Source: an uncultured Clostridia bacterium
GTDB lineage: Bacteria > Bacillota > DTU025 > MWDF01
DNA length: 64,000 bases
Assembly: GCA_964577435.1 (NCBI GenBank)
Contig: CAZNZD010000001.1
Location: 7,247-71,246, forward strand
Direction of reading: 5' to 3'
How positions within the stretch are numbered: the stretch's first letter is position 1; each line of letters opens with the position of its first letter. The notes below the pieces were generated by a model, which did no database searches, was not told where the DNA came from, and worked only from the letters and a program-made list of their open reading frames with translations. A program made the position numbers and the translations under genes. Below, in pieces: positions 22,024 through 59,984 of the stretch.

Positions 22024-22049
22024 TCACATAATCCTTGGAGGTTGCTCAT

Positions 22050-23270
22050 ATGGACAAGAAGGGCTTCAAGAAGATCGTCCTGGCATATTCAGGCGGGCTG
22101 GATACTTCCATAATAATCCCCTGGCTCAAGGAGAACTACGATGGTTGCGAGGTAATCGCAGTTACAGGCGATGTCGGCCAGGCAGACGAGCTGGAGGGCC
22201 TTGAAGAGAAGGCCCTTAAGACCGGCGCATCCAAGCTTTATGTGCTGGATCTGACCGACGATTTCGTGAACGGATACATCGTGCCTACCTTAAAGGCCGG
22301 TGCTGTATACGAAGAGTATATGCTCGGAACAAGCCTTGCCCGTCCCTGCATCGCGAAGGGCCTTGTGGAAGTGGCCCTCAAGGAGGGAGCGGACGCCGTA
22401 TGCCATGGCTGCACCGGGAAGGGCAACGACCAGGTGCGCTTCGAGCTTGCCATCAAGCACTTCGCCCCGACAATGCCGGTGATCGCCCCGTGGAGGGAGT
22501 GGAGCATCGTCTCAAGGGAGGAGGAGATCGAGTACGCAAGGGCGCACAATGTGCCCCTTAAGATAACCCATGAGACGAACTACTCGAAGGACAAGAACCT
22601 ATGGCACCTTTCGCATGAGGGGCTTGACCTTGAAGATCCCGGCAACGAGCCTCTATATGACAAGGAGGGCTTCCTTGAGATAGGAGTCTCCCCCGCAAAA
22701 GCCCCGGATGAACCCTCATATGTCGCGTTGGAGTTCGAAAAGGGAGTCCCAGTAGGCCTGGACGGCGCGCGGATGAGCGCAAAGCAGATCATCTACAAAC
22801 TGAATGAGATCGGCGGGGTAAATGGCATAGGACTTCTGGACCTGGTGGAAAACAGGCTCGTCGGTATGAAATGCAGGGGCATATACGAGACGCCGGGAGG
22901 GGCTATCTTATATAGGGCCCACACTGTCCTTGAGACGATCTGCCTCGACAAGATGACCATGCATGAGAAGCAGCGGTTGGCGATCACCTTCGCCGAGCTT
23001 GTCTACAACGGCTTGTGGTTCACCCCTCTCAGGGAGGCGCTCTCCGCTTTCGTGGACAAGACGCAGGAGCAGGTTACAGGCACAGTAAGGTTGAAACTAT
23101 ACAAGGGAAACATCATAAACGCCGGGGTGTGGAGCCCGTACTCCTTGTACTCGGAGAGCATTGCGACTTTCGGCAAGAGCGACTACAACCAGAAGGACGC
23201 GGAGGGCTTCATAAACCTATATGGGCTGCCGATAAAGATCCAGGCCATGATAGACAGGAAGAAGTCATAG
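22050..23270 (+). CDS. argG: argininosuccinate synthase
   Basis: [11 protein letters not shown]-loop and full-length similarity to ArgG. GGAGGT RBS. Stop codon is TAG. Confidence 0.9.
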
Positions 23271-23290: not shown

Positions 23291-24682
23291 ATGGGCAAGA
23301 TATGGGCCGGCAGGCTCGGCGGCTCCCTTGATGAAAGGGCGGACGACTTCAACTCCTCGATAGGCTTTGATTGCAGGCTCTATAAACACGACATCGAGGG
23401 TTCGATCGCCCACGCCGGCATGCTTGCCGCCAAAGGGATAATCCCCCAGCAGGACGCAGATGCCATCATCGAGGGGCTTGCAGGAATCCTGGAGGACCTT
23501 GAGCATGGAAGACTCGAGGTCGATATGGCTTGTGAAGACATCCATACCTTCGTTGAGCAAGTGCTTACGGCCCGCATCGGAGACGCCGGGAAGAAGCTTC
23601 ATACGGCGAGAAGCCGCAACGACCAGGTGGCGCTCGATCTGCGCATGTATCTGCGAGATGAGGTCCTGGCGATAATCAAGCTTATCGAGGGCCTGTTGGA
23701 TGCCATTGCCACCAAAGCGGACGCTCACAAGGCAACAATAATGCCCGGTTATACGCATCTGCAGCGCGCACAGCCTGTAACCTTCGGGCATCATCTGATG
23801 GCATACGCCATGATGCTCATCAGGGACATAGGCAGGTTGAAGGACGCATACGCAAGGATGAACGTTTCACCGATCGGCTGCTGCGCGCTTGCGGGAACCA
23901 CCTATGATATCGACCGTGACACGGAGGCAAGGCAGCTGGGCTTCGAAGGAGTTGCCCTAAACAGCATTGACGCGGTGTCCGACAGGGACTTCTGCATCGA
24001 GATCCAAGGCGCATTTGCTATCTTGATGATGCACTTGTCACGATTCTCGGAAGAGATAATACTCTGGTCCTCGCTGGAATTCGGCTTTATCGAGCTGGAT
24101 GCCGGTTTCTCTACGGGCTCATCCATAATGCCGCAGAAGAAGAACCCCGATATTGCCGAGCTTGTCCGCGGAAAGACGGGAAGAATCTATGGAAACCTTA
24201 CTGCGACACTCACCATGATGAAAGGGCTTCCGCTTGCCTATAACAAGGATATGTAGGAGGATAAGGAGGCAGTCTTCGATAGCGTGGAAACTGTAAAGAA
24301 GAGCCTCTCTGTCTTCGCTCCGATGGTTGCGACCATGCATGTCAATGCGGATAGCATGATGGCGGCAGCGCAGGCAGGTTTCATTAACGCCACCGACTTG
24401 GCTGATTACCTTGTGAGGAAGGGGTTGCCCTTCCGAAGCGCATACAAGATCGTTGGGCAGATAGTTGCCAGGTGCCTTGCCGAAGGCAAGGTGCTGGATA
24501 CGCTGCCACTTGATGTGTATAGGCATTATAGCGGCCTATTCGATGTGGATCTTTACAGCGATATCGACCTTGGCGCATGTGTCGGGAGGCGCGTCTCGAA
24601 GGGCGGCACATCCCAACAATCTGTCGATATGCAGATAGCATACATTCGAGATTTCCTTAATAAATGTGTTCAAAAGGTCTAA
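23291..24682 (+). pseudogene. argH: argininosuccinate lyase interrupted by an in-frame TAG at 24254-24256 (a Gln codon elsewhere in the family)
   Basis: ORFs 23291-24256 and 24284-24682 are in the same frame and together reconstitute a full-length ArgH. The junction reads ...AYNKDM*EDKEAVFDSVETV versus the conserved ...NKDMQEDKE. Confidence 0.6.
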
Positions 24683-25166: not shown

Positions 25167-27317
25167 TTACGGGCGCGCGATGACCTTCGCATCGTTAGCC
25201 TTGAATGCCGATTCGCTGTAATAACGGATGCCCGTCTTCAGATCCAGGCTGTAGTGCTTCATGAAGTCCCACATGATCTCCGCGTGGCCGGCTATGTTGT
25301 TGTGGGCTTCATATAGGGTGAAGACGTATTCCAACACAGGGTACCCTTCGTTATTGGCCCAGGTGAAGGTGCGGAAACGCGCCATGCTGGTGTTCCAGTC
25401 GGAGATATCCCCCACCTTGTTACCCATTGCGCCACCATTTAAGGCATTCCCCCCGCTGTACTCGATAGCGGCAAGGAGGTTCCCCTTTCCTAGCGAATTT
25501 GCGGTGGTGTAGTAATTCATCCACTTGGTTATGCCTGTAGGGGCGGCAGCGGTGCCTATGCTGTCCCAGATGATGTCTGCACCGGCGGCCTTGGCCTCCT
25601 CGGCGGTCGCATAACCAGGTATGCCGCGGTTCGAGTAGTTGCCCTCGCCGATGACCAAGCCGACTGGGATGAAGCTGTTGCTCGCTCCGTCGGTACCCAG
25701 GTTGCCCGGGAAGTTGCTTGGATAAGCCGCAGCCAGTTGTTTGTTGGTCGTGGCGTCCATGGCCAGGTTGTTGGTGGCGCCGCCGCCGGCCGACTGACCG
25801 GTAGCATATATCCTGTTCATGTCAAAGCGGCCATCAGCTGCCAGGAAGTCCCTCATGGCCGTGAACATGACCGTATTGCTGATGCTTGGCAGATTGCCTG
25901 TTCCAGGGGAGGCGGTGCGAGTCTGAAGGAAGATCGCAAAGCCATTCTCTGCCGCGACCTGCCACCACATTGTGGAATCCATGAACAGGTTGGAAGTCTG
26001 AGAAGCGCCATGCCATACCGTGACTACTGGTATATTGCTGTTTCCTGCAGTCTCAGGCACATACAGCAGAGTATCCATTACGTAGCCGCTGGGCAGTGTC
26101 AGGGTCTTGATGGTTATCGTGCCCTTAACCGGCTCCTTGTAGTTGCGTACTTTGGCCGATACGATGCCTGAGGCCTCCTTCTTCGCAGAGGTGAACCTTT
26201 CTACCTGGATTGCAGTGTAATCCAGGCGGTAATTGAGGGCGTTGCCGTAGCTGATGGACACGTCATACCGTGAGTAATCCGTCAGCTGGTCGCGCAGCTC
26301 CCGGTTGAAGGCATAAGTACTGGTAGCGTCGCCCGCTATGGTTACAGTCGTAACCTTGGAGATGGGACCGGCGAACTCCGTAGCCCATGTGTCCTTCTTC
26401 TGGGCAAACACGCTGCCGGTGGCGGTGATGCTGCCGAAAGCAGTCAACGTGACGTCGGCCGCAGCACCGGTGGCCTTATTGACTGTCCTCCAGTAATTGA
26501 GGCTGTCCGTACCCTTGTAGTTCACAAGCCATGTCGGTACGGGCATGTCGTCCTTCTCCAGCAGGCCCTCGAAGTCGCGGTGATTCTTGTTGACGATGTC
26601 CTGCAGCCGGGTGGCCATCTGGATCAATGCCTGCTGACGGTCGATGACTAGATTCCTGTCGCCGTCTGTCATGTGAGCCCAGCCGAAGGAGACGGAACCG
26701 ATATCCGTAAGGGCGCTCGCCCCGACGGATGCTCCGTTCACGAAAGCCTGCGAGATGACCAGATTCGGATTCTCGGCAGCCCATGCTTCCAGAGCAGCTG
26801 CACCTTCGCCGTAACCTTCCAGGTAGAAGACCCCGAAGGTGGTGAAATATGTCCCGACGCCGCCATGCTTGGCCTTGGCCGCATCGATATAAGCCTTCTC
26901 GTCCGGTATGCTGCCCCAAGTGCCGGTTGCTTTATCCGGCAACAGCAGGTAGAGACACTCGCCAGTCTCATCGGCTATGCGCTTCCAGCCGCTGCTTATA
27001 AGCCAGCTGTCCACGTCCGACTTGTTGGGGACAGCTATGAAATGGAAGTAGGGACGAAGCACCGCAGTCGCGGGAATATACCAGCGGACCTCGCGGTTGG
27101 CGAAGCTTCCATCCAGTGCGGAGTAGAAATATCCGGTGGTGGGAAGCTGATTGGCTTCAGTAACGTCACGCACGGGAACCGGTTCATCAGCTAAGTTCTT
27201 GGCTTTCAACTCACTCTCGGGCGCAGCATCGCCAACTGTAATGTCGGCAGACGTGGAGACCGCAGCCGCCATGGCCAGGATAAGCGCCAGAAGCACGACA
27301 AACCATCTCTGTTTCAT
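25167..27317 (-). CDS. secreted tandem alpha/beta-hydrolase (esterase / PHB-depolymerase-like) protein
   Basis: Signal peptide, then two GxSxG nucleophile elbows (NGASVG in the N-half, GQSAGG in the C-half). 716 aa. Confidence 0.6.
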   Translation of the reverse strand: MKQRWFVVLLALILAMAAAVSTSADITVGDAAPESELKAKNLADEPVPVRDVTEANQLPTTGYFYSALDGSFANREVRWYIPATAVLRPYFHFIAVPNKSDVDSWLISSGWKRIADETGECLYLLLPDKATGTWGSIPDEKAYIDAAKAKHGGVGTYFTTFGVFYLEGYGEGAAALEAWAAENPNLVISQAFVNGASVGASALTDIGSVSFGWAHMTDGDRNLVIDRQQALIQMATRLQDIVNKNHRDFEGLLEKDDMPVPTWLVNYKGTDSLNYWRTVNKATGAAADVTLTAFGSITATGSVFAQKKDTWATEFAGPISKVTTVTIAGDATSTYAFNRELRDQLTDYSRYDVSISYGNALNYRLDYTAIQVERFTSAKKEASGIVSAKVRNYKEPVKGTITIKTLTLPSGYVMDTLLYVPETAGNSNIPVVTVWHGASQTSNLFMDSTMWWQVAAENGFAIFLQTRTASPGTGNLPSISNTVMFTAMRDFLAADGRFDMNRIYATGQSAGGGATNNLAMDATTNKQLAAAYPSNFPGNLGTDGASNSFIPVGLVIGEGNYSNRGIPGYATAEEAKAAGADIIWDSIGTAAAPTGITKWMNYYTTANSLGKGNLLAAIEYSGGNALNGGAMGNKVGDISDWNTSMARFRTFTWANNEGYPVLEYVFTLYEAHNNIAGHAEIMWDFMKHYSLDLKTGIRYYSESAFKANDAKVIARP

Positions 27318-28202: not shown

Positions 28203-29249
28203 TCACCTACAAGCTTCACAAGTCCTTCTTATCGCATCGAAGCCTATAAGCCTTACATCGGGCGACTTGAAACCATCCTTAATCGGTTCGATCTTCATCA
28301 GGTCAGTGCTCAGGTACTTCTTGTTGTCGTCGGAGAATACGGTTACTACGTTTGCATCCTTGCCTATGATGTCCTGTACCGCAAGTGCGCCGAGGAAGTT
28401 GGCACCAGAGGATATGCCGACTGCGAGTCCCAACTCCTTGGCAAGCTTCTGCGCCATGATTATGGAGTCACCGTCATCAACGTCGATTACTTCATCAAGC
28501 TCTTCGACTTTAAGAATCGGAGGTATGAACTCATCCGAAATGCCCTGGATGCGATGCTTGCCCACCTTGTACCCGACGGAGATGGTCGGTGAATTAGATG
28601 GTTCCAGGGGATGTAGTCTGATCCGAGGGTTCATGCTCCTTAGATATCTGCCTGTGCCCATTACTGTCCCGCCAGTTCCGACGCCTGCGACAAACGCGTC
28701 TGGCATCAAACCCCTGGACTGCATCTGGAACCAGATTTCCGGCCCCGTATGCAAGTAGTGGGCTTCCGGATTGTCGATGTTTGAGAACTGGTGCGGAAGG
28801 AAAGACGAACCGATGCTCTTTGCAAGCTCATCGGCAGCGGCAATGCTTCCCAGAAACCCGCCTTGCTCTTTGCTTATAAGCACTATGTCCGCCCCCAGGC
28901 TGCTGATTAGGTTCTTCCTTTCGGAGCTCATCCAGTCGGGCATGAATATTGTAACGGGATGTCCAAGCGCCCTGCCGATGGCGGAAAAGGAGATCCCCGT
29001 ATTTCCGCTTGTCGCCTCAATTATCATGTCACCCGGCTTCAGATTGCCGGTCTTGTATGCCTTAGAGATGACATGCAGGGCCATGCGGTCCTTTATGCTT
29101 CCCGTCATATTCAAGTTCTCGGACTTCGTGTATACTGTCCTCTTTTTACCCCTGTATTCGCACTCTATTGCCAGAAGGGGGGTGTTGCCAATGTATGCCG
29201 AAAGATTCTCTATGGCGGTGCTGGTTCGAGCTGCATACCCCATTTTCAT
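28203..29249 (-). CDS. cysteine synthase-family PLP enzyme (CysK/CysM paralog) with ~45-aa C-terminal tail ending in CxxC
   Basis: PLP-lysine motif SIKDRMA, glycine loop GTGGT, and SSGAN. The extra C-terminal tail reads ...[16 protein letters not shown]. Confidence 0.8.
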
Positions 29250-29500
29250 ATACCCCCACGAACTTAAGTCTATGAAGGCGGACTTTGAGCTGCTCCGTCT
29301 GCCCCTTACAATACTGCTGGCCCTCATGGATGCCCGATCCGCTTTCTTTGTTCAGCTCATGCTTATGGCAACCCGGACATCCCTTCGGCCTAAGCTACCA
29401 ATCATCCCATCCAGGCCCTGAGAGATGCCGCTATGAGGCCAGGAAGGCATGCGGCATCTTCCCTGAAAAAGGAGGATGCCGCGTCCATGTGAAATCTCTG

Positions 29501-30868
29501 CTACTTGGCGATGGCCGCCAGCTGCCCGAAGAGGGCGTCAAGCGCTTCTGTGTAAGCCTTGTTGTTGACGCCTGTCCCACCGTTCTTGTCGACGTAGCCC
29601 GGCTGTATGTTCTCCCATGTGAACATAAGCTCTATCTGGCCGAGGATCGGGTCGGGATTGCCCTTGGCGTCCTTGCGGTCCTTGTTGTAGACAAAGACAT
29701 AGGGCACCTGGAGTTTGTTTGCGGTCACAACTTTTCCTGCAGCGTCTGTGTACTGGACGTTGTTCTTGTCGATTGCATAGGCTGTCTCTATGCCGGGGAA
29801 GTACTTGAGGACAAGGTCTACATACATGTTCGCATACGCGTTCTTGGTATCGCGGACCTGAAGCACGTTGGAATCAAGCCTTGTGTCCCAAGTGTAGATC
29901 TTATCGATGTTGTACTTCTTTGCGTACTGGTTGACAAGCTTCACCACAGCCTGGGTGTTCGGGCACCATGGTCCGCCGAACATGAAGACGAAGTTGCCCG
30001 GGCTTTCCAGGATCTTGGTGAGCTCGTAATAGGATGTAGTCTGCATCACCCAGGGTTCATCCTTCGCATCTAGTATCGTAGCCTTCGCCCTTGCGTTGTA
30101 AGCAGTGCTGAAGTACTCGAAGTCGGTGAAAGTGTCAAGCTTGGCAGTCTTCTTGCCAAGTATGGACTTCGTCGATATCAGGTCGAATAGTGGGCGGATC
30201 TCCTTCTTGTAAGCTTCGATTTTAGCCGGGTCGTCCTTTCCGTTGGTCTGGAAGTCGGCCTCCCACCTCAGCATCTTCTCATAAGAGGCGAGTATGGGGG
30301 CGGGCTTGCCGTCAGCGGTGACGCCCTTCTTGTTGTAGATGAACAGGAAGGGCACCTGCAGCTTGTTGGCTACTACGGTCTGACCCTCCGCGTTCACGTA
30401 ACTTACATTGTTGACGTTCTTGTCATACAGGGTGACTATGTTGGGCAGGTACTTATTCACAAGGTCTACATAAAGGTTGGCGTATGGGTTTTTGGTGTCG
30501 CGGATGTGCATGGAGGCTCCATCAAGCTTGAAGTCGAAGTTGTATATTGCCTCGACCCCATACTCCTTCGCCACATCGTTGATCTGACCGATTACAGCCT
30601 GGGTGTTGCCGCACCAAGCTCCCCCGAACAGTATCATGTATGTGCCTTCGCTTTCGAACAGCTTTATCAGCTGGTCGTATGAGACCGTCCTGAAGACGGG
30701 TTCAGGGTCTGTCAGGTGGGGGAAATTGGCGCTGTTGAAGAACTGGTACGTCGCATTGATTCCGGTCTTAGCCGCGGCTTCCGCGCCCGTTCCGACCCAC
30801 AAGCTGGCTCCTATTGCCACAATGCAAAGCAGCAACATGGCCGCCCTAGTTAATCTCCTTGCCATCAT
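29501..30868 (-). CDS. secreted protein with two tandem thioredoxin-like single-Cys modules (WCGNTQAV / WCPNTQAV)
   Basis: Signal peptide, then two ~200-aa repeats about 45-50% identical. Both carry FGGxWCxNTQAV, RDTKNxYANxYVDLVxKY and NKLQVPxxFxYNK. Confidence 0.6.
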   Translation of the reverse strand: MMARRLTRAAMLLLCIVAIGASLWVGTGAEAAAKTGINATYQFFNSANFPHLTDPEPVFRTVSYDQLIKLFESEGTYMILFGGAWCGNTQAVIGQINDVAKEYGVEAIYNFDFKLDGASMHIRDTKNPYANLYVDLVNKYLPNIVTLYDKNVNNVSYVNAEGQTVVANKLQVPFLFIYNKKGVTADGKPAPILASYEKMLRWEADFQTNGKDDPAKIEAYKKEIRPLFDLISTKSILGKKTAKLDTFTDFEYFSTAYNARAKATILDAKDEPWVMQTTSYYELTKILESPGNFVFMFGGPWCPNTQAVVKLVNQYAKKYNIDKIYTWDTRLDSNVLQVRDTKNAYANMYVDLVLKYFPGIETAYAIDKNNVQYTDAAGKVVTANKLQVPYVFVYNKDRKDAKGNPDPILGQIELMFTWENIQPGYVDKNGGTGVNNKAYTEALDALFGQLAAIAK

Positions 30869-30910: not shown

Positions 30911-31156
30911 TTACGGGCACACTGCCCCGTCTGAGGATGGCGATTCCGCCTGAGGCGCAGCAACGCTGCCCGTATCTGGCGCCGCACCTGTAGCCGGAAG
31001 AAGTCCTCCTGGCAGTACATTGATTACCAGCCCTCCGCCAGAGCTTGGCGCGGCTGGTGCGAATGCATTCTTTTTCTGAAAATTGACCATGGTGAAAAGC
31101 CCGAAGCCGATGGCGACGAGCACTATAAAAAGTGCCACTGAATGCCTGTTTATCAA
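30911..31156 (-). CDS. small single-TM membrane protein with Pro/Gly/Ala-rich tail
   Basis: TTG start with AGGAGG 7 nt upstream. One N-terminal TM helix (VALFIVLVAIGFGLFTMV) followed by a low-complexity tail. Confidence 0.45.
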   Translation of the reverse strand: MINRHSVALFIVLVAIGFGLFTMVNFQKKNAFAPAAPSSGGGLVINVLPGGLLPATGAAPDTGSVAAPQAESPSSDGAVCP

Positions 31157-31375: not shown

Positions 31376-32782
31376 TCATGCCGCCTCAGTCGTTTCCACG
31401 TCAGCCTTAGGATTGTCATATACAGTCTGATCTACTTCCTTCAGGATCCTGGCAGAGACCGCTCCCGCCACAAATGCATCTGATACGTTAAGCGCGGTGC
31501 GGCCCATGTCTATCAATGGCTCAATCGAGATCAGCAGGCCGGCGAGGGCTATGGGCAGGTTGAGCGCTGAAAGCACTATCAAAGCAGCGAACGTCGCCCC
31601 TCCTCCGACTCCGGCAACCCCGAACGAGCTAATGGCTGTTACTATCGCGACCGTAAACAGGAAGCCTATTCTAAACGGATCAATCCCGACTGTTGGTGCT
31701 ATCATGACGGCCAGCATCGCAGGATAAATCCCGGCGCAGCCGTTCTGTCCGATAGCAATCCCGAAGGTGGCGGCGAAGTTCGCCACGCCCTCGGATATGC
31801 CCAGCTTCTTGGTCTGGGTCGAGACGGTCATAGGCAGCGTTCCTATGCTGGTGCGGGACGTGAATGCGAAGGCAAGCGTCGGGAACGCTTTCTTCAGGTA
31901 AGTCCATGGATTGTACTTGAACACAGCGAGAATGAACAGATGGACGATGAACATGATTATGATTGCCGCATACGAGGCAATTACGAATTTTGCCAGATTC
32001 ATGATTGCGTTAAAATCTGTGCCTGCAACCATTGAAGCCATCAAAGCCATAACACCGAACGGCGTGAGCTTGAGGATCATCGTTGTCATCCTCATAGTCA
32101 CTGCATAAGCTGCGTCCACAAGCTTCTGAACCAAATCGGTCTCGGCCGGGTATTTCTTCCTTGCTCCAAGAGTTGCCAGCCCGATGAAGGCTGAGAACAC
32201 CACCACTGCTAACGTGGAAGTGTTTCTTGCCCCTGTCATGTCCTTAAACGGGTTTGTGGGAATGATCTCAAGAATCTTGTCAGGCAGCGATGTTGTTGCC
32301 TGTGCGGATGACTGCTGCAGCACTGCGGCCCTTTGTGCCTCGGCGGCACCGACAGTCAGCTCCCTTGCGTCAAGGCCGAAGGCCAGTGCTGAGACCTCGC
32401 CCACCATGGCTGCCACGCCGGCAGTAAGCACCAGCGTAAGGATTACGCTCAGGCTCATCTTGCCCAGGTTCTTCGAATCCTTGAGCTTCAGTATTGCCGA
32501 TATGATTGAAACCATGACCAATGGAATGACTATCATGCGGAGAAGGTTCACATACCCATTTCCCACCAGCCCATACCACGGAAGCGTGCCATCGATGACT
32601 TCCTGTTGCCCTTTGAAGGCGAACTGCAAAGCAAGGCCTAGTACTATTCCCAGGCCGAGCGCAATCAGCACACGCTTCGTGAATGACGCCTTCTTCACCT
32701 GCATCCAGTAGACAATTCCTAGCAATACTGCAAGTACGACGACGTTTATCACAATATACAGATTTACCATGAGTTCCTCCAA
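31376..32782 (-). CDS. dicarboxylate/amino acid:cation symporter (DAACS) family transporter, TcyP-like by length (specificity unknown)
   Basis: 468 aa with 8 TM helices plus two re-entrant loops, typical of DAACS/GltP proteins. GGAGG RBS. Confidence 0.8.
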   Translation of the reverse strand: MEELMVNLYIVINVVVLAVLLGIVYWMQVKKASFTKRVLIALGLGIVLGLALQFAFKGQQEVIDGTLPWYGLVGNGYVNLLRMIVIPLVMVSIISAILKLKDSKNLGKMSLSVILTLVLTAGVAAMVGEVSALAFGLDARELTVGAAEAQRAAVLQQSSAQATTSLPDKILEIIPTNPFKDMTGARNTSTLAVVVFSAFIGLATLGARKKYPAETDLVQKLVDAAYAVTMRMTTMILKLTPFGVMALMASMVAGTDFNAIMNLAKFVIASYAAIIIMFIVHLFILAVFKYNPWTYLKKAFPTLAFAFTSRTSIGTLPMTVSTQTKKLGISEGVANFAATFGIAIGQNGCAGIYPAMLAVMIAPTVGIDPFRIGFLFTVAIVTAISSFGVAGVGGGATFAALIVLSALNLPIALAGLLISIEPLIDMGRTALNVSDAFVAGAVSARILKEVDQTVYDNPKADVETTEAA

Positions 32783-33559: not shown

Positions 33560-36268
33560 ATGATATCATGGCTTTCTTGCCTGTGGGCTAAGACACCCAC
33601 GGACGAAACGGCTGCCACCTATCACCCGCTTCTTCTTCACATGCTGGATGCCGCCGCCTGTGCAAGAGCCTTGCTTAAAAGGGAGCCTCAAAGCACCTCT
33701 CGCATGCTGGCCGCTGCTTTGATGATGGACCCAGACGAGCTCCCCTCGCTGCTCAGCTTCCTAGTCGCCTGCCACGATATCGGAAAGGCGGCGCCCGGGT
33801 TTCAGCTGAAGTGGCCTCCTTTCAACAGGATGGCCGCTGCTGAAGGGATAACGATTCCGCATCACCCGGATACCAGCTTCAATCATGCCTTCCTTAGCCA
33901 GTCAGTGCTTGAGACAGAACTGCCTTCCCTTGGTTGGGATCCAGGCAGGGCAAGGCTACTTTCATATGCCGTTGGTTATCATCACGGGGTTCGCCCCTCT
34001 TTCAGCACAATCCTTGAACTGGAGTCGAATAGAGGCGCCATAGGGGATAAAAGCTGGTCTGAAGCCAGATGTGACATCCTTCGCCTGTTAGCCGGTTTCT
34101 TCAAGGTGAAGCCGCCCACATCGGAATATCCCCACGATCCCGCCGGTGAGGACTTCGCTATGCTGGCCGGATTCATCACCATATCGGACTGGATAGCCTC
34201 CGATACCAGGATGTTCCCCTACGGTACGGCCGATGACTGCCTTGATCTTGAGACATGGTACAAGATCAGATGCAAGCTTGCTGCAGCAGCTTTGGATCGA
34301 ATCGGTTGGAATGTGAAGTCCCCTCTTACTGAAATGCCTTTATCCTTTACAGATGTCTTCAGCAAGTATTCCCCGCGACCCCTTCAGTCTGCGATGGCTC
34401 AAGCCACGCTCGCCACTGAGACCCCCTCCGTTTTCGTAATAGAGGCCCCGATGGGCGAGGGAAAGACGGAGGCCGCACTCTTCTCATACCTCGTCCTGCA
34501 GGCTCGCCTCGGGCATAGAGGCCTTTACATGGCGATGCCGACAAGGGCTACTGGAAATGCCATGTATGACAGAGTACGCGAATTCCTGGATGGCCTGAAA
34601 CTTGACAGGCCGATCGACCTCCAGCTCGTGCACGGAGCGGCAGTCAGGCAAAAGCCTGAAGGCGATGTAAGAGCTTTCACAGCTAACAGCGAAAGCCATC
34701 CATCCTCTGCTCCGGCTGCTGACATCGAGGCGTCGGAGTGGTTCGGAAGCAGGAAGAAGGCGCTGCTGTCCGAAACGGGTGTAGGAACCATAGACCAGGC
34801 TTTGATGTCCGTGCTGAGCGTCAGGCACAATTACCTCAGGATGTGGGGACTGGCCAATAAGGTGGTCGTCTTCGATGAAGTGCACGCCTACGACGCTTAT
34901 ACCGGCACGCTTCTTCTGGAGCTTATACGTTGGCTCCACTACCTTAACTCCTCTGTGGTGATCCTCTCTGCCACATTGCCGGACAAGTTCAGGTCCGAGC
35001 TGGCTTCCGTCACAGGAAGCGATAAGCTTGTGACCACTTTGCCGCAGGCAAAAGCCGAATACCCGAGAATCACAGTGATGGACAGGCACGGTATGAAAGA
35101 GTCAGGCTTCCCGTATGACGAAACCCTCTCAAGGGAGATTGCGATAATCGGCGCATCTGTGGATGCAGACGCTCCGAGGTTGATCATAGAAAGCCAGTTG
35201 GAGAACAGTGGCATGGCCGCTGTCATCGCTAATACCGTCGACCGGGCCCAAGCGGTCTATCGCGCATTTGGCCCGGGGGATGCCATACGCAAAGACGGGG
35301 AGACTGTCGGCAAGCTCCTTCCGGATGGCACAGAGATCTACTTGTTCCACGCCAGATTCCCCTCGGATTCAAGGAGGGTAAGGGAGGGCAATGCACTCGA
35401 TCTATTCTTCAGCAAGAACGAGACAAGGCAAGGGCGCAAGGTGATAGTCGCCACTCAGGTCATCGAGCAAAGCCTGGACCTGGACTTCGACCTTATGATA
35501 ACCGACCTTGCTCCGGTAGACCTCCTTCTGCAGAGGGCAGGAAGGCTTTGGAGGAAGCCTCGCAATGCAAGGCCGACGGAGAAGCCACTTCTTTACGTGG
35601 CCGGATTGTACGAAAGGCTGTTTGACTTCGGACGGCCTCTCTGGTGGAGCGCAGTATACAGGGAGGACATCCTGATTAAGACATGGGCGCTGCTAAGGAA
35701 CCGGACTGCAATCCGGATGCCGGCCGATATCGACCTTCTTGTGCAGGCGGCATATGGAGAGGATATTACGATGCTTGGGGATATTACGGAGGCTGAGCGG
35801 CAGCGCTATGAGAGGGCCGAACAAGAGAGCCAGGGAACCGTATCGGCGATGAGGTGCGCCGCGAGGAGTACTGCCATAGGCCACCCTGATGACGGGTCGT
35901 GGGAAGACCCCAGCCGGCTGTGTCTGCTTGAGGAGGCTTCTCCGGAAGTAAATCGGATGCTGGTCGCTAAGACGAGGAGTTCGGACAGCAGCATGACTGC
36001 AGTATTGATCCGGCCCGATTCAATCTCATCGCTCACCGAAGTGAAGGATTCCCAGACCTTGAAGGACCTTATAGGCAGAAGCATCGGCATTTCCCGCAAG
36101 TCCGTTATCTCCGCTCTTGGCAGGGCAGGGGTTCCGGAGGCATGGAAGAAGGAGCCCGTCTTGAGATTCTGTTATCCGATGCTTCTTGATGATGATGGGA
36201 GGTGGCAGATGGACCGCAACGTCAGGCTGGATGATGAACTCGGACTCGTTTATGGTCAGGAGGTATAA
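33560..36268 (+). CDS. cas3: Cas3 HD-nuclease/helicase (type I-E)
   Basis: N-terminal HD domain (HMLDAAA...CHDIGKAAPGFQ), DEVH box (VVVFDEVHAYD) and a helicase C-terminal domain. 902 aa. Confidence 0.9.
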   Translation: MISWLSCLWAKTPTDETAATYHPLLLHMLDAAACARALLKREPQSTSRMLAAALMMDPDELPSLLSFLVACHDIGKAAPGFQLKWPPFNRMAAAEGITIPHHPDTSFNHAFLSQSVLETELPSLGWDPGRARLLSYAVGYHHGVRPSFSTILELESNRGAIGDKSWSEARCDILRLLAGFFKVKPPTSEYPHDPAGEDFAMLAGFITISDWIASDTRMFPYGTADDCLDLETWYKIRCKLAAAALDRIGWNVKSPLTEMPLSFTDVFSKYSPRPLQSAMAQATLATETPSVFVIEAPMGEGKTEAALFSYLVLQARLGHRGLYMAMPTRATGNAMYDRVREFLDGLKLDRPIDLQLVHGAAVRQKPEGDVRAFTANSESHPSSAPAADIEASEWFGSRKKALLSETGVGTIDQALMSVLSVRHNYLRMWGLANKVVVFDEVHAYDAYTGTLLLELIRWLHYLNSSVVILSATLPDKFRSELASVTGSDKLVTTLPQAKAEYPRITVMDRHGMKESGFPYDETLSREIAIIGASVDADAPRLIIESQLENSGMAAVIANTVDRAQAVYRAFGPGDAIRKDGETVGKLLPDGTEIYLFHARFPSDSRRVREGNALDLFFSKNETRQGRKVIVATQVIEQSLDLDFDLMITDLAPVDLLLQRAGRLWRKPRNARPTEKPLLYVAGLYERLFDFGRPLWWSAVYREDILIKTWALLRNRTAIRMPADIDLLVQAAYGEDITMLGDITEAERQRYERAEQESQGTVSAMRCAARSTAIGHPDDGSWEDPSRLCLLEEASPEVNRMLVAKTRSSDSSMTAVLIRPDSISSLTEVKDSQTLKDLIGRSIGISRKSVISALGRAGVPEAWKKEPVLRFCYPMLLDDDGRWQMDRNVRLDDELGLVYGQEV

Positions 36269-36269
36269 G

Positions 36270-37805
36270 ATGGGCAGTTTCAACCTTTTAGACGAGGCAT
36301 GGATCCCGGTGAGCATGCTCGACGGGACAAAACGAAGCCTGGGGCTGAAGGATATTTTTCGGAATGCAGGTTCAATACTGGCAATCGAGCACACCTCTCC
36401 GCTTATAGTCGGATCAGTATACAGGCTGTTGCTTGCTGTGCTCTACAGGGCTTTTGACGGACCCTCCTCGCTCGGCGAGGCTTCACGGATATATGAGGAC
36501 GGGTTAAGCAGAAGGTTGCCCGACATCCATGATTACCTGGAGAGATGGCGGGAGAGATTCTACCTATTCGATGACGCGCACCCCTTTTTCCAAGTCCCGG
36601 ATTATATGCCCAAGTCCAGGCGATACTGGACTGCACTGGCCGCCGAGATGAACGACGACAACTCGAAAGTCTTGTTCGACCACACAGGCTTTGAGGGCTT
36701 ACAGGAGGACTTCATGGCCCTTGACCCAATAAACCACGCAGAAGCGGCATTATTCCTGCTTGCCACTCAGGCATTCTCAGTATGCAAGGGAAAAAGCGAG
36801 TTCCAATATACCAAGGGTGCGCCCATAGCCTCTTCAGCGGCTTTCATTGTTCAAGGGACATCCTTAGAGGATTCCCTGTTACTCATGTTGCATCCATATC
36901 CCAACAAGGAAGTGCAGCAGGCCGACTTGCCTGTCTGGGAGCGGCCCCCACTATCGTCATGCCAGCTGAAGGAGGGGATATCCCGCGAGATCTCTGGTTA
37001 TGCCGACCTTTACACATGGATGAGCAGGTCCGTGAAGCTACTCGCCGAGAACGATGGGAAGGTGCATTCTATCGGCCTAGCATCAGGGGTAGTAGATGAT
37101 AACACCCTCAATCTGGAGGATCCAATGTGCGGTTTCAGGACCGACCAGAAGTTCGGGCGGCTTCCGCTTCAATTCGGCGAAAGGGGTTTGTGGAGGAACT
37201 TCGATTCGCTGATTCCATCAAGCTCTGCAGATTGTGCCCCTAAAGTAGTAGAGAATGCCATTGCACTAATGAGAAGGAGTGGTAAGCATTCCGTATTCAG
37301 CCTTCTTGCAGTCGGCCAGAGTAACGACAAGGCCAAGATCGAGTTCTGGCGGCAGGAGAGGTACTCCATGCCGGAAGCCATGCTCTCCGACCTCGACGCA
37401 AGAGGTATCGTGCAATCGGCAATACGGCTGGCGGAGGATTACAGCCAACCGATAATCGGCGCCTGCAGGACATATGCAAAGAAGATGCTCTCCGGAGGCG
37501 ACCGGGATCCTGACATGAAAGACGTCACCTCCTTCTTAAGAAGCGCGACGGCGATCCAGGATTATTGGACAGGGGCCGAAAGGGGATTCCATGAGCTTTT
37601 ATCCGCGATGGATACGCAGTTCGACCCTGATGAAGTAGAAGACGCCTGGAGAGACCACCTAAGACGAACAGCCCTTAAGTCCTGGGATGACTATATGGCA
37701 TCACAGACCGGCATAAGGTCCATAGTTGCTCAAGCTCACGGCAAGCGCACTCTAATGGTAAAGCTTAATCATCTATCTCCACAGCAAGGGGGGACGGTAT
37801 CATGA
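36270..37805 (+). CDS. cse1: Cse1/CasA (Cas8e) large Cascade subunit
   Basis: Starts 1 nt after the cas3 stop with a GGAGGT RBS. N-terminus MGSFNLLDEAWIPV is typical of CasA. 511 aa. Confidence 0.85.
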   Translation: MGSFNLLDEAWIPVSMLDGTKRSLGLKDIFRNAGSILAIEHTSPLIVGSVYRLLLAVLYRAFDGPSSLGEASRIYEDGLSRRLPDIHDYLERWRERFYLFDDAHPFFQVPDYMPKSRRYWTALAAEMNDDNSKVLFDHTGFEGLQEDFMALDPINHAEAALFLLATQAFSVCKGKSEFQYTKGAPIASSAAFIVQGTSLEDSLLLMLHPYPNKEVQQADLPVWERPPLSSCQLKEGISREISGYADLYTWMSRSVKLLAENDGKVHSIGLASGVVDDNTLNLEDPMCGFRTDQKFGRLPLQFGERGLWRNFDSLIPSSSADCAPKVVENAIALMRRSGKHSVFSLLAVGQSNDKAKIEFWRQERYSMPEAMLSDLDARGIVQSAIRLAEDYSQPIIGACRTYAKKMLSGGDRDPDMKDVTSFLRSATAIQDYWTGAERGFHELLSAMDTQFDPDEVEDAWRDHLRRTALKSWDDYMASQTGIRSIVAQAHGKRTLMVKLNHLSPQQGGTVS

Positions 37806-38284
37806 ACGGTTTCATCGACCGGCTCGAGGAGCTTAATGAAGGTGACCCCAAAGTCAGGGCAGAGCTGAAAAGGAGCCTTTCATTCGACCCCGGCACATAT
37901 CCGAGGGTATTCGGATTTGTTGAGCCCTGGGTGCAGAAAACGCAGCTGAATGATTCGAGGCGCATAGCCTACTACCTAGTTGCAGGACTATGGGCGATGA
38001 ACTGGAGCGAGGCGACGGGAAGGGGTGGCAATTCAATCGGAAAAGCCTGCCTCCTACTGAGAAACCAGAAGGACTCCTCGAGCATGGATGCCCGGTTCAT
38101 CAACCTTTTGGAGGCTGATGAGGGGCAGCTTCCCAACAGGCTGCGGCAGATTGTGTCCCTTCTGAAGGAGATACCTATAGACTTCAGACAGCTGCTGGAT
38201 GACGTAGTCTTTTGGGGCTTCGAAGACAAGCGCATCCAGATAAGGTGGGCCAAGGAATACTTCGGTGGAATTGAAATCCAATAA
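37802..38284 (+). CDS. cse2: Cse2/CasB (Cas11e) small Cascade subunit
   Basis: 160 aa alpha-helical protein in the position and size expected for CasB. Overlaps cse1 by ATGA. Confidence 0.85.
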   Translation: MNGFIDRLEELNEGDPKVRAELKRSLSFDPGTYPRVFGFVEPWVQKTQLNDSRRIAYYLVAGLWAMNWSEATGRGGNSIGKACLLLRNQKDSSSMDARFINLLEADEGQLPNRLRQIVSLLKEIPIDFRQLLDDVVFWGFEDKRIQIRWAKEYFGGIEIQ

Positions 38285-38297
38285 AGGAGGTAGGAAA

Positions 38298-39449
38298 GTG
38301 AACAGACTGCTAGTTGAAGTGCATGTCCTTCAGAACTTCGCCCCGTCCAATCTTAACAGGGATGATACCGGAGCACCCAAAGATGCGATTTTCGGGGGCT
38401 CCAGAAGAGCCAGGATATCGAGCCAGTGCCTTAAAAGGTCAGTACGGGAGTACTTTAGGGAAAAGGCAGAAGATGGAGTTATTGCCGTCGATGATTTAGC
38501 CATAAGGACTAAGAGGCTGCACGCCATGCTTCTTGATTCTCTTGAGCCTTTGGGAAGGAGGCCTGAGGAATCGGAGGGTAAAATCAAGACCGCATTGTCG
38601 TGGATAAACCTGTCTTTGGACGAAAAGAATGAGAATAAGAGCCAGTATCTTCTTTTTGTAGGGCCAAGGGAAGTAAGCGACATAGCCAGGATCATCAACG
38701 ACAAATGGGACCTTATCCTAGTGGCTGAGCTAGGCGGCGAAGAGAAGAAAGCCAAGAAGAAGGATGCAGCAAAAGCTTCAGACCCCAAGGTGGCAGATGC
38801 ACTCCGTAAGGCATTAGACGGCGGCAAGGCTATAGATCTGGCTTTGTTCGGAAGGATGCTTGCCGACATGCCCGGTAAGAACGCCGATGCCTCATGCCAG
38901 GTGGCGCACGCGATCTCAACTCATGCAGTTGAAAGGGAGTTCGACTTCTATACCGCGATCGACGACCTAAAGCCGGATGACACCTCAGGGGCTGATATGA
39001 TGGGTACCGTGGAGTTCAACTCCGCCTGCTTCTATAGATACGCCGTTCTGGATTGGGAGAAATTTCTTAGTAACCTTCAAGGGGATGCTGAGCTGGCCAG
39101 GAAGGCCGCTCGTTTATTCATTGAGAGCTTCGTGATGGCGGAGCCGAGCGGAAAGCAGAACTCCTTCGCAGCCCATAACCCACCGGAGTTCGTCATGGTC
39201 TCATTGGTTACGAAAGGACAACCCCTCAACCTTCTTAACTCATTCGAAAGGCCTGTGTATTCGAAGAAGGGGCTCACTGCAGCCTCTGTAGACGCCCTAA
39301 CGGATAAGGCCAAAGCTTTAAATACAGCCTATTCCAGGGCTTCTGATAATTTCATTCTGAACCTGACAAGCTCCGACGCCGAAGGCCTCGGTATCAAGGT
39401 TGGCACCCTTAACGACCTGCTTGATAAGACAGCCAGCAGACTGGCTTAG
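38298..39449 (+). CDS. cas7e: Cas7e/CasC Cascade backbone subunit
   Basis: GTG start with AGGAGG 7 nt upstream. Motif HVLQNFAPSNLNRDDTGAPKD is diagnostic of CasC. Confidence 0.85.
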   Translation: MNRLLVEVHVLQNFAPSNLNRDDTGAPKDAIFGGSRRARISSQCLKRSVREYFREKAEDGVIAVDDLAIRTKRLHAMLLDSLEPLGRRPEESEGKIKTALSWINLSLDEKNENKSQYLLFVGPREVSDIARIINDKWDLILVAELGGEEKKAKKKDAAKASDPKVADALRKALDGGKAIDLALFGRMLADMPGKNADASCQVAHAISTHAVEREFDFYTAIDDLKPDDTSGADMMGTVEFNSACFYRYAVLDWEKFLSNLQGDAELARKAARLFIESFVMAEPSGKQNSFAAHNPPEFVMVSLVTKGQPLNLLNSFERPVYSKKGLTAASVDALTDKAKALNTAYSRASDNFILNLTSSDAEGLGIKVGTLNDLLDKTASRLA

Positions 39450-39459
39450 GAGTGATAGA

Positions 39460-40131
39460 ATGCCTACAGTCCTACTGAAGTTGATAGGACCGATGCAGTC
39501 CTGGGGCGTTGTCAGCCGGTTCGATCAAAGGGATACTTTCCGTGAACCCAGCAAGTCAGGTGTCATCGGCCTTGTCTGCGCAGCTATGGGGATAGACCGC
39601 TCGGATTATGGAAGGCAGTCGCCCTTGTATAGGGCAAGAATGGGAGTTAGGCATGACAGGCCCGGTACCCTAAGGTATGATTTCCAGACCGCTGCATGCA
39701 AGAAGGCGGATGTGATCATCCGAGCTGATGGCAAGCTGGCTACTGACGGCGGAGTCATCTCAAAAAGGTACTACCTAGCCGACGCCGCTTTCCTGGTTGG
39801 CCTTGAACTAGATGACCGGCTACTATTAGAAGCGATTTGTGTAGCGCTAGATAATCCCGTATGGCCTCTGTACCTGGGCAGGAAATCATACGTGCCGTCC
39901 GAGCCCGTTACTTGCAGTGACCGACCCGTTGACATGCCGTTGGTGGAGGCATTAACGAGTCATCCTGCTCTAGATGGCAGGATTGGAAGCCCGGCTGACA
40001 AGACCTTACTGCTGTCCATTGAGAATGATAGGCAGGAGGGGCTCCTAGTAATGGACCAACCGCAGGGTGCTTTGGAGGAGCGGCGCTTTTCCGCGCGCTA
40101 CCTAAAGACAGAAACAATTGTGTTGTGCTGA
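39460..40131 (+). CDS. cas5e: Cas5e/CasD
   Basis: N-terminus MPTVLLKLIGPMQSWG matches the CasD consensus. Confidence 0.85.
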   Translation: MPTVLLKLIGPMQSWGVVSRFDQRDTFREPSKSGVIGLVCAAMGIDRSDYGRQSPLYRARMGVRHDRPGTLRYDFQTAACKKADVIIRADGKLATDGGVISKRYYLADAAFLVGLELDDRLLLEAICVALDNPVWPLYLGRKSYVPSEPVTCSDRPVDMPLVEALTSHPALDGRIGSPADKTLLLSIENDRQEGLLVMDQPQGALEERRFSARYLKTETIVLC

Positions 40132-40140
40132 GGTGGAGAT

Positions 40141-40766
40141 ATGTATCTATATAGGGCGGTTCTGAATCTTAGATGCAAGGAAGTCCGAAGAGACATCTCC
40201 GATGCTTATCAGATGCATTCGACCTTATGCAGGGTTTTCTCGGAACCATCTCAGAAATGCAAGCCAGGTACTATGCTGTGGAGGCTGGAGCCCGAGAATA
40301 GCCCCAATGGAAATCCTGTTGTGCTGGTTGTTAGCAGTGAGCTCGCCAACTGGAAACGGTTGGGGATTTCAGATTGGTTGGATGGTACTCCAGATGGACC
40401 TGTTAACTTATCGGAGAGGTTCAGCAGCAGTTATTACGACAACGGATCGTTATTAAGGTTCCGGCTAAGGGCCAATCCGAGTTACTGCTCTGTGGGAAAG
40501 AGACATGCATTAAGAGCGCCTGAGAAGCAGGCTGACTGGATGAACAGGCAGGCAGAGAAATGGGGATTTGAGATTGTCAGCCAATTAGTCAGCCATCAGG
40601 CTGATATCCGAGGCGGAACCCGGGCGGGCGACCCGATTATAGTGTTCTCTGCATTATATGACGGTATGCTCAGAGTTCGTGACAAGGATAGGTTGGTCGA
40701 GGCCATGCTGCATGGAATTGGACACGGCAAGGCTTTGGGATTGGGCCTCTTAACGGCGGCTCCACA

Positions 40767-40770
<4 letters not shown>
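40141..40770 (+). CDS. cas6e: Cas6e/CasE crRNA endoribonuclease
   Basis: C-terminal glycine-rich loop GIGHGKALGLGLL. 209 aa. Confidence 0.85.
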
Positions 40771-41979
<1,209 letters not shown>

Positions 41980-48000: not shown

Positions 48001-48381
48001 CGCGGGGATGAACCGCTGCTGTCTAGCCTGTACTTGGGCTAGCCTGTGCTTTCCCCGCAGGCGCGGGGATGAACCGTCCCCTCTTTTTCATATCGGCAAC
48101 TTTGGTGTGCTTTCCCCGCAGGCGCGGGGATGAACCGTGTAAATCTTCGCCGCGGCATCCCAGCTTGCAGCTTTCCCCGCAGGCGCGGGGATGAACCGAG
48201 GAAATTTCGGCGCAAGCCGATACGGGAGGGGCTTTCCCCGCAGGCGCGGGGATGAACCGTGCCGAGGCCGCTTCTTTCGCCGTGACGCCTGGCTTTCCCC
48301 GCAGGCGCGGGGATGAACCGATGACAGCGGCGCAGTTGGGCTTAGACCTCACGCTTTCCCCGCAGGCGCGGGGATGAACCG
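42008..48381 (+). CRISPR. Type I-E CRISPR array: 105 repeats of 29 bp (GCTTTCCCCGCAGGCGCGGGGATGAACCG) and 104 spacers (103 of 32 bp, one of 33 bp)
   Basis: Every repeat start was located by hand. The period is 61 bp throughout, except 62 bp between 44753 and 44815. The repeat has the I-E palindrome CCCCGC...GCGGGG and the 3' ...GGGGATGAACCG. Orientation follows the cas operon, so the leader is on the cas2 side. Confidence 0.97.
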
Positions 48382-57549: not shown

Positions 57550-57634
57550 GCCGGAGTGGCGGAATGGCAGACGCACGAGACTTAAAATCTTGCGCCCTCA
57601 AGGCGTGCGGGTTCGAATCCCGCCTCCGGCACCA
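57550..57634 (+). tRNA. tRNA-Leu (anticodon TAA), long variable arm, CCA encoded
   Basis: Acceptor stem GCCGGAG/CTCCGGC, anticodon loop CTTAAAA, variable arm CGCCCTCAAGGCGTG, and T-arm CGGGTTCGAATCCCG. Confidence 0.85.
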
Positions 57635-58020
57635 ACCTAGATGGAAGTCTCTCTGAAAGATGAGCATCGTACTTTCCGGTAATGCATATAACGATGATGA
57701 CGAAATGAAGGGAGGTGCGAACATCCTCCTGTTTAGCTATTGTCCGGGATTTTGTCCGCACCTACCATGGCTTGATTCTAGCCGTCATTGACAGTGTTCT
57801 TGGCGCTCATATGCTTCTATACGATACAGGTGCCTATAAAAGATACAGTAAGGAATTATCGCGGTTATGCTGTCATACTTGAGCAAAGCTCAAATAACCT
57901 GATTGCCAGCAGTAGATACAAGGTTTTATAAAGAGAAGGGGTAAGGGGAACAGATAGTATCTGATATGTAGTGATCGAATTTATCACGTCAAACGCCAAT
58001 ACACTGCAGGAGGTGCTAGT

Positions 58021-59175: not shown

Positions 59176-59260
59176 TGCAATTACTTGACGGCGTGCTCTG
59201 AGAAACTGGAGGACATGCTTCACTAAATGTTCCAATGAGTTTAATAGGGGGGATTTTGTA

Positions 59261-59803: not shown

Positions 59804-59831
59804 AATGTCTATAGATGACAAAGGAGGTTAA

Positions 59832-59984
59832 GATAAAACCTGTAAAAACGTTGTTTTCCCTGTAGGTGCATATGAACCGGAAATCGTCGATCCCGATGGT
59901 GGGATCGCGCCTGTTACTGCGTATGAAGATGTCCTTGATGATTGGCAATGCCCGATTTGCTCTTTAAGCAAGGATGGATTATGA
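59832..59984 (+). pseudogene. decayed rubredoxin gene (no start codon, first CxxC lost)
   Basis: Frame reads DKTCKNVVFPVGAYEPEIVDPDGGIAPVTAYEDVLDDWQCPICSLSKDGL*, against the rubredoxin consensus ...CxxCGYIYDPExGDPDNGVxPGTxFEDxPDDWxCPxCGxxKDxF. An AGGAGG RBS is intact at 59822, but a TAA lies two codons upstream and no ATG/GTG/TTG is present. Confidence 0.4.

Follow-up and report, generated by a model that had tools for sequence, protein, structure and literature searches.

The DNA considered here, called the window, is a stretch of 64,000 nucleotides from an uncultured Clostridia bacterium (assembly GCA_964577435.1, contig CAZNZD010000001.1, positions 7,247 to 71,246). An interval in it that had been flagged for an internally repeated, thioredoxin-like protein coincides exactly with a single open reading frame (ORF), 29501..30868 on the minus strand, which is preceded by the ribosome-binding site AAGGGGAG just 5' of its ATG and encodes a protein of 455 amino acids, named TRX2 in this report. 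The gene belongs to a row of four genes on the same strand, which are, from upstream to downstream, an SDF symporter, a small membrane protein with a C-terminal cysteine (the "tether"), TRX2, and a CysK/CysM-like pyridoxal phosphate (PLP) enzyme. The features of this region are as follows.

29501..30868, minus strand: TRX2 gene, 455 amino acids, secreted tandem thioredoxin-fold protein
30773..30868, minus strand: Sec-type signal peptide of TRX2, about amino acids 1-32, with predicted cleavage between ...GTGAEA and AAK
30260..30703, minus strand: thioredoxin-fold domain 1 of TRX2, amino acids 56-203, with W85-C86-G-N-T89 and the cis-Pro loop Q-V-P173
30059..30259, minus strand: interdomain linker subdomain of TRX2, amino acids 204-270, helices and short strands according to the secondary structure of the model
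29612..30058, minus strand: thioredoxin-fold domain 2 of TRX2, amino acids 271-419, with W301-C302-P-N304-T305 and the cis-Pro loop Q-V-P389
30911..31156, minus strand: tether gene, single-pass membrane protein of 81 amino acids with a transmembrane helix and a C-terminal Cys
31376..32782, minus strand: SDF (DAACS) symporter, TcyP-like (PF00375, E = 4e-100)
28203..29327, minus strand: CysK/CysM-like PLP enzyme downstream of TRX2 (PF00291 present; probable true start Met27 at 29249)

The internal tandem duplication of TRX2 is real and lies far beyond chance. In a local self-alignment, amino acids 56-203 match amino acids 271-419 over 149 columns with one gap and 52% identity (77/149), and the BLOSUM62 score of this alignment is 409, compared with 34.2±5.4 (maximum 52) in 200 shuffles. 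Three pairs of motifs are found in both halves, namely FGGAWCGNTQAV and FGGPWCPNTQAV, RDTKNPYANLYVDLVNKY and RDTKNAYANMYVDLVLKY, and NKLQVPFLFIYNK and NKLQVPYVFVYNK. An earlier note on this DNA had given about 45-50% identity for the two halves and had listed three shared motifs, which agrees well with the self-alignment; its module size of about 200 amino acids is likewise a fair figure, the repeat period being 216 amino acids (Cys86 to Cys302), composed of a conserved core of about 150 amino acids and a linker of about 65. Chance or an assembly artefact as the origin of the repeat was ruled out, since the tandem layout is conserved over hundreds of homologues. Mature TRX2 contains exactly two cysteines, one per domain; a third one, Cys15, lies inside the signal peptide. 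In alignment A1 and in the AlphaFold model, Met1 is omitted and the ORF number is the A1 number plus one; C85 and C301 of A1 are therefore C86 and C302 of the ORF, with the codons 30611-30613 and 29963-29965.

In the AlphaFold model, the N-terminus of TRX2 forms a helix, which is followed by a segment with a predicted local distance difference test score (pLDDT) of <50. A strand ending in ...ILFGG then leads into W-C-G-N-T, which opens a long helix and occupies the position of the thioredoxin motif WCGPC. The sequence NKLQVP precedes the next core strand in the manner of the thioredoxin cis-Pro loop, and its QVP portion is conserved; β3 and this loop are separated by an insertion of about 45 residues, modelled as a helix and a β-hairpin. 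The model displays the features that characterize the thioredoxin-fold superfamily, with a β-α-β-α-β-β-α core, an active site where the first long helix begins, and a cis-Pro loop before β4. Sequence profiles remain below their cutoffs: the Pfam models Thioredoxin (16.6 bits, cutoff 23.5) and Thioredoxin_8 (18.3 bits, cutoff 27) are aligned at the active site, and the NCBIfam scan of TRX2 gave nothing meaningful, the TrxA and TrxC models scoring about 13 bits versus cutoffs of 125-138. Profile HMM searches of the PDB sequences with the full-length protein and with the single domain yielded no significant match, the best thioredoxin match having E = 0.29; a match to AIM2 (E = 0.05) in the PDB-sequence profile search was judged spurious. 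The best Foldseek matches are PDI, ERdj5, and QSOX at E ~1e-4 with TM-scores of 0.15-0.2. In the literature searched, no description was found of a WCxNT family, of a monothiol extracytoplasmic thioredoxin fold, or of a thioredoxin-like protein linked to TcyP or CoA-disulfide reductase (CoADR). The remaining claims of the earlier note are borne out by these data as far as they concern sequence, fold, and family. The retained Cys does sit at the thioredoxin active-site turn, where it follows the FGG strand, precedes the long helix, and is covered by the sub-threshold Pfam alignments; the preservation of the first Cys only turns out to be a family-wide, selected feature; and the suggestion of an undescribed family is in line with the absence of any above-threshold match in Pfam or NCBIfam, of a PDB sequence match, and of a description in the literature searched.

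TRX2 is clearly a member of the thioredoxin superfamily that uses known types of chemistry. Compared with classical thioredoxin (TrxA, PF00085), in which the motif is the dithiol WCGPC, TRX2 has WCGNT and WCPNT with Thr in place of the resolving Cys; it further differs in being secreted and tandem, in carrying the insertion of about 45 residues, and in its sub-cutoff Pfam score. The position of the buried Asp26 presumably is Leu in TRX2, according to an alignment with a TrxA sequence that is reliable only in its first half. With the PDI family, TRX2 shares the presence of several thioredoxin folds on one secreted or luminal polypeptide, of which one domain is often catalytically degenerate, and the CxxS variants Eug1p and ERp44 of that family act through mixed disulfides. 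In contrast to PDI, TRX2 is bacterial and has neither the a-b-b'-a' architecture nor CGHC; the TIGR01126 pdi_dom model scores 14 bits versus a cutoff of 107, the low TM-scores reflect another domain arrangement, and the Cys proposed as its partner belongs to another polypeptide, which is tethered to the membrane. Monothiol glutaredoxins likewise form a mixed disulfide with a single active-site Cys, which is resolved by an external thiol. TRX2, however, contains neither the CGFS/CPYS signature nor a glutathione-binding motif, its motif being WCxNT; the Glutaredoxin models of Pfam and NCBIfam do not match it, and the external thiol proposed here would be a protein-borne tail Cys or free cysteine. 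The CcdA–TlpA/ResA/Etrx systems are comparable as thiol–disulfide oxidoreductases at the outer face of the membrane, but TRX2 is neither a CxxC protein nor a member of the Redoxin/AhpC-TSA family, and the window locus has no CcdA or TlpA. The Redoxin/AhpC-TSA profiles (TlpA/ResA/DsbE) do not match TRX2, while the TlpA-like neighbour in one related locus (L052) scores 98-99 bits.

A word-indexed search retrieved 199 relatives of TRX2. Those from Spirochaetota and Clostridia metagenome-assembled genomes are two-domain proteins of about 450 amino acids, those from rumen and gut Clostridia comprise about 560 amino acids with a C-terminal transmembrane anchor, and those from Paenibacillus and Cohnella are SLH-anchored proteins of 740-1030 amino acids. 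None has a precomputed Pfam domain in its thioredoxin part, and the source names are limited to "hypothetical", "SLH domain-containing", or the generic "thiol-disulfide isomerase/thioredoxin". An exhaustive HMMER search of 1.84 billion representative proteins with a single-domain profile returned 347 clusters at E ≤ 1e-3, nearly all of them with two matched stretches and some with three to five, and not a single ordinary thioredoxin. From this pattern it follows that the family is rare and distinct and that the tandem arrangement is ancestral. The relatives bear signal peptides, lipoboxes, SLH domains, copper-amine-oxidase-like domains, or C-terminal transmembrane anchors, which places the family outside the cytoplasm.

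The two domains differ in the conservation of their active sites. In a 43-sequence alignment, with a family identity of roughly 35-40%, W-C-x-N-T-x-A of domain 2 is invariant, as is an Arg at A1 R338 (ORF R339), while at the Cys position of domain 1, 36 sequences have Cys, six have Ser, and one has Val. In a wider set of 264 proteins, the motif of domain 2 is nearly always W-C-x-[N/D/Y]-[T/S]; about 45% of these proteins retain the domain-1 Cys, the others having Ser, Asp, Asn, or further residues in its place. Domain 2 is probably the catalytic domain, because nearly all members have its Cys and many have lost that of domain 1; the division resembles that between catalytic and non-catalytic PDI domains. 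Two of the 264 members (P0171 and P0202) have WCxNC, from which it is evident that Thr occupies the position of the resolving Cys; elsewhere this second Cys is absent. In a Paenibacillus subclade (L042, L044, L051, and L061), domain 2 reads FG-C-S-W-C-PNT, by which a CxxC is re-created one turn upstream. The versions of about 560 amino acids from rumen and gut Clostridia (for example P0074, P0078, P0099, P0108, and P0112) end in a transmembrane helix, a Lys-rich stretch, and a conserved ...GGGCC or ...GKCC. The ...GGGCC end was considered as a source of the resolving Cys and rejected; its location behind the transmembrane helix and the Lys-rich stretch makes it probably cytoplasmic.

Directly upstream of TRX2, the window encodes the tether, which starts with TTG behind a strong GAGGAGG ribosome-binding site and consists of an N-terminal transmembrane helix, a Pro/Ala/Gly/Ser linker, and the C-terminus ...SSDGAVCP, with the codon of Cys80 at 30917-30919. 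A homology search with this protein found 9 close relatives, all of them unnamed. For a wider view, 78 genome loci encoding TRX2 relatives were fetched, which together with the window make up 79 loci. In 78 of the 79, the product of the gene directly upstream of TRX2 has a transmembrane helix that is joined by a variable linker to a tail with Cys at its end; at the sole exception, L064, the contig ends about 400 nt upstream of the motif. These genes are also called independently in public annotations. The layout is common to three clades, the linkers being otherwise unrelated. Tethers of the window clade have 81-93 amino acids and end in ...A/S-C-P; those of rumen Clostridia have about 170-200 amino acids, include a helical domain, and end in ...EEIELC, ...EIEIC, or ...ELCPA; and those of Paenibacillaceae are Ala/Pro/Thr-rich proteins of 190-340 amino acids that end in ...EEVCP, ...EEDCPE, ...DEEIC, or ...EEDC. 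Other tails are ...ACP and ...EEIC. What is conserved in the tether is its architecture and its terminal Cys, not its sequence, and the linkage of its gene to that of TRX2 is near-obligate. The length of the linker rises with the thickness of the envelope and with the anchoring mode of TRX2: a soluble TRX2 goes with a short linker, a wall-bound, SLH-anchored one with a very long linker. Such a trend would fit a tail that has to reach TRX2 physically. In one locus (L008, 4975-5200), the tether reads ...AAPCP followed by a Trp codon where its relatives stop, which is due either to a TGA-to-TGG change or to a sequencing error.

The symporter encoded upstream of the tether shows 50-57% identity to proteins with the PGAP annotation "L-cystine transporter"; no NCBIfam equivalog model matches it, and its assignment to the L-cystine type is based on sequence. 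Of the 78 genome loci, 59 have an SDF gene no more than 6 kb from TRX2 (60 of 79 with the window), either upstream and co-directional, divergent, or downstream, and the SDF proteins of the window clade are 65-96% identical to the TcyP-like protein of the window. In eight loci that retain the SDF gene, a gene of the CoADR family is located between it and the tether, just upstream of the latter; a ninth locus on a truncated contig (L013) has it at the same place next to the tether. This neighbour scores 641 bits against the NF007123 cutoff of 458. Relatives of the window locus thus have a tight SDF–CoADR–tether–TRX2 operon; in that of L001, the SDF stop codon is overlapped by the start of the CoADR gene. 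The adjacent symporter with 50-57% identity and the cytoplasmic disulfide-reductase homologue in the operon of relatives are reminiscent of TcyP (YdjN/YhcL) and the cysteine/cystine shuttle. To our knowledge, neither an extracytoplasmic accessory of thioredoxin fold nor a Cys-tailed tether has been described for TcyP, and no description of an extracytoplasmic accessory or a Cys-tailed tether for it was found in the literature searched. Downstream of TRX2, the CysK-like gene product scores 312.6 bits with TIGR01136, below the cutoff of 344. A scan for promoters and terminators gave counts near the shuffled expectation.

Another type of neighbourhood is found in 13 Paenibacillaceae loci, where TRX2 is closely followed, on its own strand, by genes for CcdA (DsbD_TM) and a TlpA/ResA-like redoxin; some of these loci have the two fused into one protein of 408 amino acids. 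The pair of CcdA and TlpA/ResA-like protein is the canonical route by which reducing equivalents are delivered to the outer face of the membrane. Tether tails with two cysteines, such as DEENCDIEEEGC, DEDCAVDGEESC, EEICPPEEEICP, and DEDCGIEDCG, also occur in 13 loci, 12 of which are among the 13 CcdA/TlpA loci (Fisher's exact p = 4.5e-12, uncorrected for phylogeny), and at least four distinct tail types are behind this co-occurrence. The Paenibacillus subclade with FG-C-S-W-C-PNT has both the fused CcdA–TlpA protein and the two-Cys tail DEENCDIEEEGC. The co-occurrence supports a redox-active, extracytoplasmic tail Cys.

In 13 representatives (P0185, P0187, P0190, and ten others; loci L084-L086), TRX2 modules are fused to Peptidase_M1 of the aminopeptidase N family with an intact HExxH…E motif. 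These fusions are secreted proteins of 900-2350 amino acids with one or two M1 domains, some of them containing Big_2 or Big_3 domains in addition. Twelve of the 13 have exactly one further Cys per TRX2 unit. This Cys is embedded in an invariant G-C-G, as in SDNGCGDDNDP and TGGCGTG, and lies 190-240 residues past the active one, in an acidic linker of low complexity that precedes the M1 N-terminal domain. No tether gene was called upstream of the M1 fusion on the two near-identical contigs encoding one such protein (P0188). In an AlphaFold model of one fusion, made from a 13-sequence alignment and of mediocre quality (pLDDT 70), the Cys arm is disordered at pLDDT 22-31, so that the G-C-G segment as modelled is consistent with a flexible arm. 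The occurrence of a candidate partner Cys both in trans, on the tether tail, and in cis, within the G-C-G of the M1 fusions, supports a partner thiol that is borne on an arm.

From these findings, a pathway can be proposed in which TRX2 would carry out monothiol-type thiol–disulfide exchange outside the cytoplasm, with its partner Cys on a flexible arm, and would be coupled to the acquisition or recycling of cyst(e)ine. We assign this reading a probability of about 0.5. With the resolving Cys replaced by Thr, TRX2 alone could only form and exchange mixed disulfides. The partner thiol would be the single Cys on a flexible acidic peptide, which in the window would be the ...GAVCP tail of the 81-amino acid tether, and the domain-2 Cys would make up an intermolecular redox pair with the arm Cys, that is, a "split" active site. 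Together, TRX2 and the tether would link the membrane with the cell surface or periplasm as a thiol relay. Likely substrates would be found outside the cytoplasm, such as cystine, cysteinyl mixed disulfides, or disulfide-linked peptides, and the exchange would feed, or be recycled through, the adjacent TcyP-like SDF transporter. Imported cystine would then be reduced or used in the cytoplasm, in close relatives by the CoADR homologue and in the window possibly by the CysK-like enzyme. The reducing power would be derived either from this cytoplasmic reduction of imported cystine (TcyP and CoADR) or from CcdA/TlpA. The partnership of the two cysteines, the nature of the substrate, and the direction of electron flow are proposed on the grounds of sequence and gene context, and the specific physiology is held to be less likely than the general mechanism.

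Several observations weigh against this proposal. About a quarter of the loci are without an SDF gene within 6 kb, and in the clades of Paenibacillus and of rumen Clostridia, the SDF proteins are generic DAACS members that are not clearly TcyP. The CysK-like neighbour is shared only with the closest relative, L007 (83% identity), and neither a sulfur-responsive riboswitch nor a T-box was found by Rfam near the operon in the window and 11 related loci. The number of tail cysteines does not covary with the number of active-site cysteines, and no docking of the cis Cys-arm onto a thioredoxin domain is seen in the mediocre AlphaFold model of the M1 fusion. The positive-inside rule gives no clear topology for the tethers of the window clade, and we infer the C-out orientation from the other clades and from the link to CcdA/TlpA.

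The tether, TRX2, and the SDF protein might even form a three-part covalent substrate-capture system in which a "split" thioredoxin active site is distributed over two polypeptides. From disulfides in the environment, surface-located TRX2 would capture cysteine or another thiol nutrient in the form of a mixed disulfide, and the trapped thiol would be passed on to the Cys of the membrane-anchored "fishing-line" peptide, from which it would be released at the membrane for uptake by SDF. This extension is considered unlikely; if it were true, the DAACS family would have its first accessory system outside the cytoplasm.

An explanation that appears rather improbable is that TRX2 serves as an extracytoplasmic thiol peroxidase or antioxidant, in which peroxide or another oxidant would convert the domain Cys to sulfenic acid and the mobile tail Cys would resolve it, as is the case in 2-Cys peroxiredoxins. 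Reduction of the disulfide formed in this way would fall to CcdA/TlpA or to cysteine, which would be recycled via TcyP and CoADR in the manner of the cysteine/cystine shuttle. This would agree with the single reactive Cys beside a conserved Thr and the invariant Arg (A1 R338), with the presence of CcdA/TlpA, which typically serve the repair of oxidative damage in the envelope, in 13 loci, and with the combination of TcyP and a flavoprotein disulfide reductase in one operon, which fits the recycling of cystine as an oxidized by-product. TRX2 does not show the combination of an AhpC-TSA/GSHPx profile with PxxxTxxC and Arg, or with the Cys/Sec-Gln-Trp-Asn residues, that membership in the peroxiredoxins or glutathione peroxidases requires.

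A comparably small chance is given to a relay for sulfane sulfur or thiols, in which the arm Cys would carry a persulfide, polysulfide, or cysteinyl group and TRX2 would load or unload it. The neighbouring reductase is of the CoADR family, some members of which reduce persulfides and polysulfides. The hosts (Paenibacillus, rumen Clostridia, and spirochaetes), by contrast, are not typical sulfur oxidizers, genes for SoxZ, SoxB, rhodanese, TusA, or DsrE are not among the recurrent neighbours, and the tether is devoid of a folded SoxY-like domain. The single-Cys arms in Gly-rich or acidic contexts (GGCG, NGCGD, and GAACP) do recall the SoxYZ carrier, where the Cys is located on a peptide swinging arm (PMC5336275). 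Common to both would be a single Cys on a flexible extracytoplasmic peptide, with GGCG in the cis versions, and the proposed covalent S–S adducts; the TRX2 system, however, has neither the SoxY/SoxZ fold nor Sox genes, and its arm is anchored by a transmembrane helix or placed in a fusion linker. The resemblance to SoxYZ is only a lead.

That TRX2 is a redox-inactive binding protein, chaperone, or scaffold with a structural or metal-binding Cys and mechanistically unconnected neighbours is very improbable, since, although the domain-1 Cys is lost in about half of the family, so that at least one domain works without thiol chemistry, and many thioredoxin-fold domains, such as the PDI b/b' domains and calsequestrin, are non-catalytic, the domain-2 WC-x-N-T and cis-Pro are invariant at such a low family identity, a Cys-tailed partner gene is present in nearly every locus, two-Cys tails correlate with CcdA/TlpA, and dithiol variants (CSWC and WCxNC) have re-emerged.

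The chemistry of extracytoplasmic thiols in bacteria is explained mainly by CxxC proteins, namely DsbA/DsbC, CcdA/DsbD, and TlpA/ResA, and the handling of extracellular disulfide nutrients by bacteria is poorly understood. If the proposed exchange mechanism with an arm-borne partner Cys is true, the family adds to this picture a monothiol enzyme of thioredoxin fold with the second thiol on a separate flexible peptide, either tethered or fused. The persistent links to SDF, M1 aminopeptidase, CoADR, and CcdA/TlpA would suggest how anaerobes and soil Firmicutes could obtain or recycle cyst(e)ine from oxidized or disulfide-bonded sources. A tether combined with a monothiol domain does not appear to have been described before, nor does the coupling of this arrangement to a secondary transporter. 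The formation of mixed disulfides by TRX2, as proposed here, is a tractable matter, with the family occurring in cultivable Paenibacillus species and with one or two cysteines per partner.

Other parts of the window contain features of their own. Downstream of the CysK-like gene, 25167..27317 on the minus strand encodes a secreted protein of 716 amino acids without a Pfam match, whose C-terminal half is weakly similar to esterases of the polyhydroxybutyrate-depolymerase type (NF050058, E = 8e-11, sub-cutoff); it is next to TRX2 in none of the related loci. An argH ORF at 23291..24256 on the plus strand, with 321 amino acids covering positions 1-319 of the 455-position model TIGR00838, looks truncated or frameshifted, while argG, at 22035..23270 directly upstream of it, is intact. 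A complete type I-E CRISPR-Cas locus extends over 33560-41700 and includes Cas3 (33560..36268), Cse1/CasA (36186..37805), and further cas ORFs. The CRISPR array at 42067-48261 comprises about 100 units with a period of 61 bp and the repeat GCTTTCCCCGCAGGCGCGGGGATGAACCG, and it explains the block of 63% GC at 42-48 kb. Finally, the stretch 58001-60000 has a GC content of 42.6%, compared with about 54% for the window, and a tRNA gene just upstream at 57550-57631; it may be an integrated element.

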